Assembly: GCF_035084215.1 (NCBI RefSeq)
Contig: NC_090368.1
Location: forward strand, 3,348,001-3,412,000
Direction: 5' to 3'
Length of the DNA stretch: 64,000 bases
Source: Heptranchias perlo
Lineage: Eukaryota
The notes under the pieces are model-generated. The model saw nothing but the letters and a program-made list of their open reading frames with translations, was not told the DNA's origin and made no database searches. The translations under genes and the position numbers were made by a program. This document shows positions 51,934 through 58,869 of the stretch, piece after piece. The first letter of the stretch is position 1, and every line of letters starts with the position of its first letter.

Positions 51934-52026
51934 TTATCTCCTTCCCCTCTTGTTTTTTGCCGACTTTTTCGGTGCAGCAAAATCCAGCGATGCGTAAAGA
52001 ACCGTGTCTCGAGGACCGCCCTGAGG
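51934..52026 (-). CDS. Terminal cytoplasmic exon with ITIM (VLYASL)
   Basis: TTTTCCAG acceptor; [30 protein letters not shown]. Confidence 0.8.
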   Translation of the reverse strand, partial: PQGGPRDTVLYASLDFAAPKKSAKNKRGRR

Positions 52027-55000
52027 CTGGAAAATATATTAAAACAGGGAAATGTATAGATATTTAAATTGTGTTTATATCAGTTTACTCATTGTCTATA
52101 AGACATGTATCCAGCGCACTGCTTTATAGCAAATAGCAAATCAGAAATCAACAAGATTAAATTAAAATATCCAATCAGACAACTGGACTGTTTGATTGAT
52201 AGACACGTCAGATGTTTCGTCATGCCCCATCTTCCAGAATAAGTGTTTCCAGGGTCAAGGGGCATAGTTCCCACCAATGAGCCCAGATCATTGGTTTAAA
52301 TGGAGATGAATGGAAACAGGTGCTATCGCGCCCCTAGCGGCAAACGTCTCCATGTGTCTGGGAGGTCGATGAAAAAGCTGTTCGCCAGTTCGGAGTGCGA
52401 AGCTCACTGTTTAGTGATGTGAACAGATAGCAACAGCGTCTCGTTACAGCACACACAGACACACTCACATATATACACAAACACACCTATACCACCCCAC
52501 ACACACATATACCCCCGCACACATACATAGACACATACACACAAACACACATATACCCCCCACACACACAAACATATACCCCCACACACATACATGGACA
52601 CATACACATACACGCATATACCCCCCACACACACAAACATATACCCCCACACACATACATAGACACATACACACAAACACACATATACCCCCCACACACA
52701 CAAACATATACCCCCACACACATACATGGACACATACACACATACACGCATATACCCCCCACACACAAACATATACCCCCACACACATACATAGACACAT
52801 ACACACAATCACACATATACCCACACACCCACATACACACAATCACACATATACCCCCCACACACCCACATACACACCATCACACATATCTGCCCTCCCC
52901 ACACACACACACACAAACACACATATACCCCCACACACATACATAAACAACACATCCATACAAACACACATNNNNNNNNNNNNNNNNNNNNNNNNNNNNN
53001 NNNNNNNNNNNNNNNNNNNNNNNNNNNNNNNNNNNNNNNNNNNNNNNNNNNNNNNNNNNNNNNNNNNNNNNNNNNNNNNNNNNNNNNNNNNNNNNNNNNN
53101 NNNNCCCCCTGACACATACATACACATAGCACAAACACACGTCTAGCCACACGCATACGCAGATGCATACACATATACACACACACATATACACACACAT
53201 ACACATATAAACGCAGACACACATACACACAAAAAAATGTAACCCCACACACATATACACAGGGCCACACATGCACGCACAGATACACTCCTATCTGGTA
53301 TAGCGACTAAGGATGGAATTCATTTAGAAACATAGTTTGAGTTATCGTCAGAATTATTCTGGAATATGGTTCCATTTCTGCATCTCCGTGATAATTAATA
53401 TGGTTCAATTATTAAAAACAGTATCTCCGCGGAGGAACTAGGCTCCCTGAAGAGATTTAAAAAGAACTGCCAAAGTCTGGAAGTGAAAGACTGGCCAGTC
53501 AAAATCTATCGATGATATCATACGCGAAGCGTTAACCCTTTCCTTTCTATTATTCGATGCCAGTGCGGTTGATTGATTCGTCCTGTTTCCATTTGGGCCG
53601 ATAATGGGGATTCGGTCGAAATTAAGATGATGGAGACTATGGGACCCATGTAGACCTGCTCTCTGTTAACGGGGCGAAAGATTCCTCATGCCATGTGTTA
53701 CAGCCGAGCCCAAAGTTACCGTATTCGCGTCCATCATTGCAACAGTTCTAATGAAACTACTTACCTTTATCTCACCCTGATGTGGCCGCTTCGCCTTGGT
53801 TTGACGGTTGCCATCTGTGTAATAATAGTTAATAATATGAATTGAAATATTATCAAATCGATAATTAATTCCAGAGACACAATAAGACAATGGTCCCCCA
53901 ATACGCCAATGGATAGACACGGTGTCTGGCGTAATTGTCCATCTAAACCATTATTGTCATTATCAATAACCCTTTGTAGGACCAACAGACAGGAGCACGG
54001 TTGGGGAGCATTTTGATGGCGGCAAATGCACTTACTGATCTTTTAAATACTCCTTATTTGATATTCTATCTGCAGCAACACTTCAAACCAACTCACCCGA
54101 TTGTGGTTCATCTGGGCCCGTTTCTTTCCTTCTCCCTTTGAAGCTGAAAGAGTATGTAAACAAAAATATCAAACAAGCGTTACTTCCTTTAATTCTTGGA
54201 CACGCGCGATAAATATTGAGAATGGGATTGTTGAGAGTGGCCTTTGGATCAATCTTAAAAGAATGAGGAAAATATAGAAATAGACCGAAAGAAATCGGTG
54301 TTTGGGATTAACGGGGTTGGACTTTGTGTTAAATTCGGTGAGACTGTTATTGATGAAAGTTGTAAACGGCGCCAGTTACTTACATTACTTTGTGGGATTT
54401 CTTCATTCTTTCATCTGAAACAAAAGGCAATAAACTGTAATAAGTGATTAACGCTGCGAGAAGCGAAACACATTAAGCAAACATTTATAAAAAGTGTGCC
54501 TGATAAAGATAAAGGCTCACCTGATCTGCGTTTGTGAATCCAAATGGTAATGAGAATCAGTAGTAGAAACAGGATCACGGTGACAGTTATTGCAACGGGT
54601 CGGATCTGAGAGCACCAATCTACAGAGACAAACACTTAGAATCTCCTGCTCGGTCAAATCATTCTTTTGCGGGATTTTAGCTTGGCCCAGTTACAAGGTA
54701 GAGGCACCAAACTCGGGGCGTGAAATGAAAAATCTGCCAATGCGATTAATATTCCAACACAGAAAGCCTATAATGGAAGCAACTGGGCTACGTTTGGTAG
54801 TTGAGACAAGCTGACAGACAGCAATCAACTAATGGAGTGTCATAATATGTTGCAGCACAGAAAGAGGCAATTCGGCCCATCGTGCCTGTGCTGGCTCTTT
54901 GAAATTAGTCCCACTGCACTGTTCTTTCCCTATAGCCCTAGAAAAACAAATTCCCTCAAAGTATTTATCCAATTCCCCTTTGAAAGCTATTATTGACTCT

Positions 55001-58000: not shown

Positions 58001-58869
58001 TCCAGTTTCAATGCATTCCGTGTGTCTCCTTTCTTAGAAATAAACCTACAGCCGGTCCCATTACAGGATTCCGTATCGATTAGTCTCGGAGCTTCACCCA
58101 CACGCTGCTTGTACCAGTGATAGCTCGCCACAAATTCCACTTCATATTCCGGGTGACAGAGTAGCTCAACCGTCTGGCCGATTTCAGCTGTCACTGTAGA
58201 CTGGTTGTGGGGCAGAAAGGTCTCGGAGTCTGCAACTGAAGGGATTATAGTTACATTACAACTGATCACTGAGAGACAGAAAGAAACCGTTCAGAAACAC
58301 ATGGCTTGTCATTTAAAAAAAAAACAGCATCATTATTGTAACATCTTCCAGCCCTACAACCCCTCCGAGATCTCTGCGCTCCTCCAATTCTGGTCTCTTG
58401 CGCATCCCCGATTTTAATCGCTCCACCATTGGCGGCCAGCTGCTTCGGCCCTAAGCTCTGGAATTCCCTCCCTAAAACTTTCCGCCTCTCTCTCCTCCTT
58501 CTTTAAGAGGCTGCCTCTTTGACCAAGCTTTTGGTCACCGGTCCTAATATCTCTTTATGTGGCTCGGTGTCACATTTAGTTTGATAATCGCTCCTGTGAA
58601 GCGCCTTGGGGATGTTTCACTACGTTAAAGGCGCTATATAAATGCAGGTGGTTGTCGTTATTTATTGCTGGTTAGATTTATTCATTCATTATCTTTTACT
58701 TCGCCAAAAGGACCATAACAATATCAGGCTAAATCCCTTCACCTGTTAATAAACAAACTCCCCTTTCCCAACTTATGGCTGATTCTATTTAAAGAGTTCT
58801 CAACCGCGTCTTACCGTAAACCCAGACAATTTGGACAGAGAGGACCAGAGAGAAAGCTCCCTTGGACAT
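51934..58869 (-). CDS. Non-rearranging antigen-receptor-like IgSF receptor (VJ-C1-TM-ITIM; PRARP/VJC1-like), ~312-325 aa. Exons: L 58815-58869, V 57903-58229, C1 57495-57812, TM 54521-54619, cytoplasmic 54097-54143 and/or 53765/53776-53814, terminal 51934-52026
   Basis: GT-AG introns with Ig-typical phase 1. Signal peptide [20 protein letters not shown]-set ([28 protein letters not shown]); C1-set ([18 protein letters not shown]); DWCSQ stalk and uncharged TM; tail ending TVLYASLDF...RGRR*. Candidate AATAAA at 51590-51595. Confidence 0.88.
52449..53287. repeat. (CA/CATA)-rich low-complexity repeat with N-run 52972-53104
   Basis: Read directly from the sequence; source of the Val/Cys-rich ORFs. 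Confidence 0.9.
54521..54619 (-). CDS. Stalk-Cys / transmembrane exon of the VJ-C1 receptor
   Basis: (D)[32 protein letters not shown]; acceptor CTGTAG, donor GTGAGC. Confidence 0.85.
54850..56480 (-). mobile_element. CR1 (HER1-like) LINE, RT region
   Basis: [32 protein letters not shown] and KFADDTK motifs with frameshifts. Confidence 0.92.
56594..57118 (+). mobile_element. Penelope-like truncated element with hammerhead motif at 57028-57064
   Basis: GIY-YIG C-terminus ([21 protein letters not shown]), pLTR, and TCAC-CTGACGA-A-GGAGA-TAA-TCTCC-GAAAGCTT-GTGA. Confidence 0.85.
57495..57812 (-). CDS. C1-set Ig exon of the VJ-C1 receptor
   Basis: [17 protein letters not shown]...[22 protein letters not shown]...[28 protein letters not shown]...[10 protein letters not shown]; donor GTGAGT. 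Confidence 0.9.
57903..58229 (-). CDS. V-set Ig exon with integral J-like G strand (no RSS)
   Basis: [25 protein letters not shown]...WYKQ...[25 protein letters not shown]; single exon; alternative in-frame acceptor at 58235. Confidence 0.9.

Follow-up and report, generated by a model that had tools for sequence, protein, structure and literature searches.

A non-rearranging VJ-C1 gene with an ITIM tail in the shark Heptranchias perlo, most likely a shark form of the PRARP/VJC1 family

The origin of antigen receptors is a long-standing question, on which the chief evidence comes from VJ-C1 genes that do not rearrange, and the shark candidates UrIg and UrIg2 are multi-C1 homodimers, not two-domain chains of the T-cell receptor (TCR) type. 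The window analysed here, 64,000 nt of Heptranchias perlo (NCBI RefSeq assembly GCF_035084215.1, contig NC_090368.1, positions 3,348,001 to 3,412,000; G000:C47:3348001-3412000), holds a VJ-C1 gene on its minus strand near an immunoglobulin light chain (IgL) minicluster, and raises the question of what kind of receptor this gene encodes and with what it pairs. On balance, the evidence leans towards one subunit (type A) of a germline-fixed inhibitory receptor, which would pair in TCR style with a tandemly encoded type B chain and represent the PRARP/VJC1 family in sharks.

The gene has eight exons (58869-51934) and codes for a 341-aa protein with the layout leader-VJ-C1-Cys-transmembrane (TM)-ITIM (a tyrosine-based inhibitory motif of immunoreceptors). 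Its exons, in window numbering as for all gene coordinates here, are as follows.

58815..58869, minus strand: leader exon; ATG at 58869, split leader, phase 1; transcript contigs extend to 58975.
57903..58235, minus strand: VJ domain in a single exon; canonical C45-C111, extra pair C76/C81, degenerate J-like G strand, no recombination signal sequence (RSS).
57495..57812, minus strand: C1-set exon; canonical C157-C214, extra C212 at the Tyr-corner position, no BC-loop F-x-P and no F-strand His.
54521..54619, minus strand: stalk Cys238 and uncharged TM helix, as given by translation, contigs and model.
54384..54414, minus strand: first cytoplasmic exon, 31 nt; joints in four of four runs.
54097..54143, minus strand: second cytoplasmic exon, 47 nt; joints in four of four runs.
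53765..53814, minus strand: third cytoplasmic exon, 50 nt; contig joints.
51934..52026, minus strand: last coding exon with the ITIM VLYASL (Y322) and a basic C-terminus; contigs of the 3' untranslated region extend to 51574.

An earlier note, made from the letters of the window, had described a single-exon V domain with a built-in G strand and no RSS, and translation, Pfam and RSS scans bear this out. The V exon (58235-57903) is one open exon that matches the Pfam V-set at 45.5 bits (cut-off 26) and terminates in [21 protein letters not shown]. Under strict RSS criteria the window as a whole returned two sites, neither of them at the VJ-C1 gene and one being the V signal of the IgL at 29107; a relaxed scan gave chance-level matches only, inside the V exon and intron 1 of the gene, and none at the end of V. 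The other elements named in the note (90-nt V-C intron, C1-set exon, stalk Cys, uncharged TM, the ITIM VLYASL and five N-glycosylation sequons) are likewise all found on the minus strand: C1-set is the only Pfam match of the C exon (57812-57495; 31.3 bits, cut-off 21), the sequons lie at N29, N77, N104, N122 and N172, the TM is free of charged residues, and the cytoplasmic tail has a single Tyr, Y322 of VLYASL. Cysteines stand at positions 45, 76, 81, 111, 157, 212, 214 and 238. The extra pair claimed for V is therefore present (C76/C81), and the 'extra' Cys of C1 is present too, although Cys212 stands where the F-strand Y-x-C motif normally has its Tyr.

The gene is intact, and its exons are spliced together. 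Contigs from four runs, all belonging to a single sample and study, runs which are not recorded as RNA and whose depths were not used for any ranking, bridge all seven introns, and one contig of 1407 nt comprises all eight exons. The leader-V joint is seen in two of the four runs, V-C in three, and C-TM together with those of the three small tail exons in all four, every joint being GT-AG; the joining of the third small exon (50 nt) to the last exon, seen in 4/4 runs, involves loose contig ends. Transcription of the gene is concluded from these GT-AG joints, and the contigs retain VLYASL in frame, so the ITIM exon is spliced in. The spliced product is identical to the database protein P0001 (Heptranchias perlo), which its source calls 'immunoglobulin gamma-1 heavy chain-like'; databases wrongly list the family under Ig light or heavy chains. 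Tail models with any one small exon, built from sequence alone, were ruled out, as the contigs use all three exons and another donor on the first.

The AlphaFold model (59-row alignment) has a pLDDT (predicted local distance difference test) of 76 overall and of ∼90 in the V domain, the C1 domain and the TM. Its C domain resembles C1-set folds, with IgG4 CH3 as a match at Z 13.5 (root-mean-square deviation 2.3, 100 residues aligned), followed by IgNAR C3 (13.2), a TCR chain (13.0) and also major histocompatibility complex (MHC) class II chains, and the best fold match of the ectodomain is to the light chains of antigen-binding fragments (Fabs). SIRP and tapasin are absent among the 50 C-domain fold matches listed, which does not thereby exclude them, and sequence searches of the PDB gave antibody and TCR chains only, among the 60 matches listed. 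The C1 domain is nonetheless divergent, without the BC-loop F-x-P and the F-strand His and with Cys where the Tyr corner would be.

Candidates for a partner lie directly beside the gene. Among 44 genome matches to the C exon, the three below E 1e-23 stand in tandem on the same contig and comprise the window gene and two sisters, whose matches at 3419429 and 3427058 are 54% and 52% identical; the remaining matches in this search are 27–33% identical. Both sister genes lie 4–18 kb beyond the window on the strand of the window gene, and each is predicted from genome sequence to encode a leader, VJ, C1 and Cys-TM, followed by one small exon for the tail and a final exon carrying TLYARL, the TM exons having been overlooked by a strict TM-exon finder and recovered by a relaxed scan. 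The G strands of the sisters are canonical (FGNGS and FGNGT), and because of this the LRNGS of the window gene is regarded as a degenerate J motif. The locus is thus a tandem set of one type A gene (that of the window) and two type B genes (the sisters), a compact set of three with both chain types in which the window gene is intact and transcribed, making pairing, ligand and signalling directly testable. The two sisters (L006:7426-7725 and L007:5055-5354, both on G000:C47) are almost identical in their C1 exons and very different in their V, TM and tail exons, which suggests gene conversion or exon swapping.

Three protein searches returned 34, 51 and 69 family proteins, all labelled as Ig chains or uncharacterised, from sharks, rays, sturgeon and lizard, with type A in sharks and rays and type B comprising those like the sisters. 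The chimaera members came from a representative search, which, when made by V alone, gave mostly tandem multi-V gene models. Because relatives occur in chimaera, sturgeon and lizard, the family predates the split of sharks and bony fish. In seven other species both types are recorded on contigs of equal length, which suggests linkage there too, and type A is strongly expanded in other species. In motif counts taken over records, isoforms included, type A (n = 54) has the V Cys pair in 44, CxC in 50 and a tail Tyr motif in 32, and type B (n = 14) has FGxGS in 14, CxC in 11 and a tail motif in 11, nine of which read TxYxxL. The sturgeon protein keeps the layout with a VHYASV tail. A TM is present in 50 of 70 records, with an uncharged core in 47/50 and a stalk Cys in 50/50; a disulphide-linked dimer, as the earlier note had proposed, is therefore plausible, and is a prediction from these cysteines.

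Three type A relatives (P0036, P0041 and P0045) have an Arg near the start of the TM and are possibly an activating form. Two type B proteins from two bamboo/epaulette sharks (P0212 and P0213) read V-stalk-TM without C1 and may be isoforms or model errors; bird PRARPs reportedly lack the C1 domain as well.

The pairing of A with B was modelled with the horn-shark orthologues of the two ectodomains, without alignments and against three non-Ig controls. The A+B model scores 0.64 against 0.01 for the best control, with contact agreement of at least 72% between runs and a partner pLDDT of at least 78; the score mark used was reached by 51 of 78 solved against 2 of 108 mismatched microbial pairs, and by 39 of 65 against 2 of 126 eukaryotic ones. 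In the model, V-V contact is made via the GFCC' faces and C1-C1 contact via the ABED faces, which are the Fab/TCR faces, and the stalk residues C239 and C237 both lie within the interface. A and B are thus predicted to form a TCR/Fab-like heterodimer. In the alignment, the C-C' interface position holds Pro in type A and Leu/Met in type B; with position numbering that we assume to hold, this would resemble the VL/VH asymmetry.

In the mechanism that we propose, the stalk cysteines of A and B would form an interchain disulphide, ligand binding would lead a Src-family kinase to phosphorylate the single Tyr of each tail, and the dimer would bring together the ITIM of type A and the TxYxxL of type B, which is like an ITSM (a tyrosine-based switch motif of immunoreceptors). 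The paired tails may then dock SHP-1/2 and so damp leukocyte activation, and the fixed V-V site would suggest a conserved self or stress ligand. PD-1 has its ITIM and ITSM on one chain, and the ITSM consensus ends in V/I (PMC11599192). Inhibitory signalling by the window gene is likely, judged from a single motif of its sequence; of the inhibitory dimeric receptor put forward in the earlier note, the spliced VJ-C1-TM-ITIM gene of PRARP/VJC1 type stands, and inhibition itself is argued from that motif. A bolder version, in which A and B are an ancient germline V-C1 heterodimer of the alpha/beta style, kept since before the shark/bony fish split, with a split ITIM and ITSM instead of CD3, we regard as doubtful, though worth entertaining. 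If it were true, two-chain V-C1 pairing would have existed without RAG, and the receptor lies beside a light-chain cluster that does rearrange, in a block that is not part of the known antigen-receptor complex.

Several observations weigh against a paired inhibitory receptor of PRARP/VJC1 type. The A+B score may reflect likeness to solved Fabs and TCRs, such that any two V-C1 chains may pass, and the model itself covers horn shark, the A-B pairing and non-Ig controls. The first Gly of the J motif is lost in type A (FGxGS in 0/54), which makes the G-strand bulge that normally serves V pairing doubtful. As to the tails, the ITIM of the window gene is canonical but position Y-2 of the 32 type A motifs is I/V/S in 12 and Pro in 20, the type B motif ends in Leu as against the V/I of the ITSM consensus, and the lizard relative keeps the layout with a Tyr tail motif in none of its four isoforms. 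The three protein searches returned no bird or amphibian sequences and no entries labelled PRARP/VJC1, and copy numbers at the locus are unequal (one A, two B).

This last point, the expansion of type A elsewhere and the degenerate J motif of A also suit a reading that accepts the same gene and family and has each chain act alone, as a monomer or disulphide-linked homodimer, with A and B as independent inhibitory receptors. Chicken PRARPs are said to occur as monomers, homodimers and heterodimers, and UrIg and UrIg2, the other non-rearranging VJ-C1 proteins of sharks, are homodimers (PMC12227049). Set against it are the joint retention of both types across sharks and rays, the passing score of the A+B model and the Pro versus Leu/Met difference at the C-C' position. 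We consider independent action unlikely, yet a serious competitor to A+B pairing.

The trees place the family apart from the rearranging receptors. The C1 tree has 49 rows, of which 30 are further C1 exons from the same genome, labelled by our own reading. In it the 17 family rows form one clade (support 99/97) apart from IgL, immunoglobulin heavy chain (IgH), TCR-like, MHC-like and multi-C1 loci, and on this basis the family is held to be old and distinct; chimaera and sturgeon join type A (98/99), the sturgeon and lizard rows being long branches. In the V tree, which has few columns, weak deep nodes, an oddly placed lizard row and reference rows partly labelled by our own reading, type A is a clade (97/98) outside the IgL, TCR, NITR-like and NKp30-like groups, with type B separate. 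The separate V and C1 phylogenies that the earlier note called for thus set the C1 clade apart from IgL and TCR, and type A V domains apart from NITR-like and NKp30-like ones. As to the likeness to a pre-RAG ancestor put forward in the earlier note, and the place of the family relative to the RAG-invaded gene, approximately unbiased (AU) tests rejected neither a sister relation to IgL (p-AU 0.71) nor one to TCR (0.59), and as two constrained trees outscored the quick free tree, those two tests show non-rejection only.

These data bear on another reading, in which RAG joined an IgL or TCR gene in the germ line and the gene, fixed in that state, later acquired TM and ITIM. Sharks do have germline-joined Ig genes (PMC12227049), the IgL minicluster lies 19 kb from the 3' end of the VJ-C1 gene, and a clade of the family with IgL survives the AU test just given. 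However, the test rejects a tree that unites type A and IgL and leaves type B outside (p-AU 0.010), the C1 domain is 45–49% identical to the sister genes as against 18–27% to IgL and 16–23% to TCR-like C domains, and the relatives in chimaera, sturgeon and lizard date the family to before the shark/bony fish split. A recent origin of the family from a frozen Ig/TCR gene is unlikely, and for the window gene we give this history very little credence.

Neither the C1 nor the V tree contains a bona fide SIRP sequence, and an innate V-C1 inhibitory receptor of SIRP-like or other kind, unrelated to PRARP and no nearer to antigen receptors than SIRP, has to be weighed separately. SIRPs have a J-like V, C1 domains and ITIMs, and SIRP-alpha clusters rank sixth and seventh in a language-model search (0.96 and 0.95), where they are outranked by V-C1 clusters (0.97). 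Against the two C1 domains and several ITIMs of SIRP-alpha, the window gene shows a single C1, a stalk Cys and a single Tyr. Its flanks also differ. In the 364 kb of flanking sequence read, a lectican, an ISG20L2-like exonuclease, a methyltransferase, a Toll-like receptor (TLR) and a Ras-family gene lie upstream and two G-protein-coupled receptors (GPCRs) of RXFP3/4 type downstream; the exonuclease matches ISG20L2 at E 1.5e-30 and ISG20 at 3.5e-19, the PDB comparison cannot separate lectican from aggrecan, and the GPCR is closer to RXFP3 than to RXFP4. The order lectican-ISG20L2-methyltransferase presumably corresponds to BCAN-ISG20L2-METTL25B at human 1q23, and the flanks appear to resemble those of human 1q22-23, mainly because of ISG20L2 over ISG20 and the adjacent methyltransferase; human 20p13, which we take to have the SIRP-type flanks, is unlike them. 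The human CD1 region (1q23) is described as a translocation from the MHC paralogue (PMC10751288). With these points together, a SIRP-like identity appears improbable.

Membership of the PRARP/VJC1 family is most likely, on the strength of shared features. PRARP1 and PRARP2 (attributed to Fu and colleagues, 2019) and Xenopus VJC1 (Ohta and colleagues, 2019) reportedly are non-rearranging genes with a single-exon VJ, C1 (outside birds), TM and an ITIM- or switch-type tail; they are said to form a gene pair and disulphide dimers, and VJC1 genes to lie in MHC-paralogous regions, including a block syntenic to human chromosome 1. Compared with this description, the window gene likewise has VJ in one germline exon without RSS, one C1, and TM with an ITIM tail, and belongs to a linked set of diverged genes (one type A, two type B) and to a clade apart from Ig/TCR/MHC with members in bony vertebrates. 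The shark family differs in its V Cys pair, its CxC F strand, the degenerate type A J motif, its expansion in many elasmobranchs and, here, its position beside a rearranging IgL minicluster. PRARP and NKp30 are named as VJ genes bearing on antigen-receptor origin in PMC10751288, and PMC8813856 gave no PRARP passage. No elasmobranch account of the family was found in the literature searched, which did not extend to the PRARP/VJC1 papers or the supplements of PMC12227049 and PMC10751288, and these may cover it; the gene belongs to a recognised kind that has scarcely been studied.

UrIg and UrIg2 share with it the shark host, single-exon VJ, split leader, C1, disulphide-linked dimers and mis-annotation as Ig light chains; they differ in that UrIg has three C1 domains and is secreted and UrIg2 has at least nine, both being homodimers encoded in the MHC or the IgH/TCR complex (PMC12227049). 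The window gene, by contrast, has one C1, a tail with a Tyr motif and another chromosomal context, and the word 'ITIM' occurs zero times in PMC12227049. Three multi-C1 loci of this genome (G000:C14:59909500-59914700, C42:3892500-3894500 and C1841:20100-22300; L066, L068 and L077), whose domains group by position and apart from IgH, are likely its UrIg-type genes.

With TCR alpha, beta, gamma and delta the gene shares the layout leader-VJ-C1-connecting Cys-TM and a predicted Fab-like pairing, and differs in lacking RSS, J segments and a charged TM residue for CD3, and in having a long tail with its own ITIM and a C1 that is 16–23% identical. SIRP is alike in its J-like V, C1 and ITIM tail and close in language-model features, and is set apart by the one C1, stalk Cys, single Tyr and flanks of the window gene. 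Teleost NITRs also have ITIMs; NITR and NKp30-like multi-V proteins resemble the gene in a germline V with a J-like strand and differ in lacking C1 and in forming separate V-tree clades, as labelled by our own reading.

The neighbouring IgL sequences offer one further candidate partner.

28572..33093, plus strand: rearrangeable IgL minicluster; leader 28572-28620, V 28782-29106 with 12-RSS, J 29654-29690 with 23-type RSS, C 32765-33093.
41201..46669, minus strand: inverted partial IgL copy; promoter, leader 46669-46621, C 41529-41201 (99% identical block), no V or J.

The 'IgL clusters' that the earlier note placed beside the gene thus come down to one complete minicluster, the second being an inverted leader-and-C copy. 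The note had also suggested pairing with the V-less chain of this copy (46669-41201). An octamer promoter, a leader and an intact C exon with a C-terminal Cys are present, and the leader and C phases are compatible, so a V-less light chain is possible from sequence. Yet the copy is a recent duplicate (95–99% identical) that lost V and J, as against an ancient receptor family, and the tandem sister genes are the better candidates; pairing with the V-less chain is not supported and seems remote.

The minicluster, which we take to be of sigma-2/NS5 type, is single, unjoined and far from the other IgL loci of the genome. Its V groups in the V tree (99/97) with P0077 and P0174, membrane proteins of other sharks with several germline-joined VJ domains, whose source names are uncharacterised or Ig kappa-like. 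The upstream TLR is a long single frame with leucine-rich repeats and a TIR domain (L021:2424-5741, minus strand; G000:C47:3290424-3293741), ∼55 kb from the window, and the downstream GPCR genes are tandem and intronless (L013:7394-8647 and L014:8542-9735, plus strand). In the ESM Atlas, a 65-member cluster of fused GNAT, V and C1 gene models may mark a V-C1 gene adjoining an acetyltransferase gene in some vertebrates.

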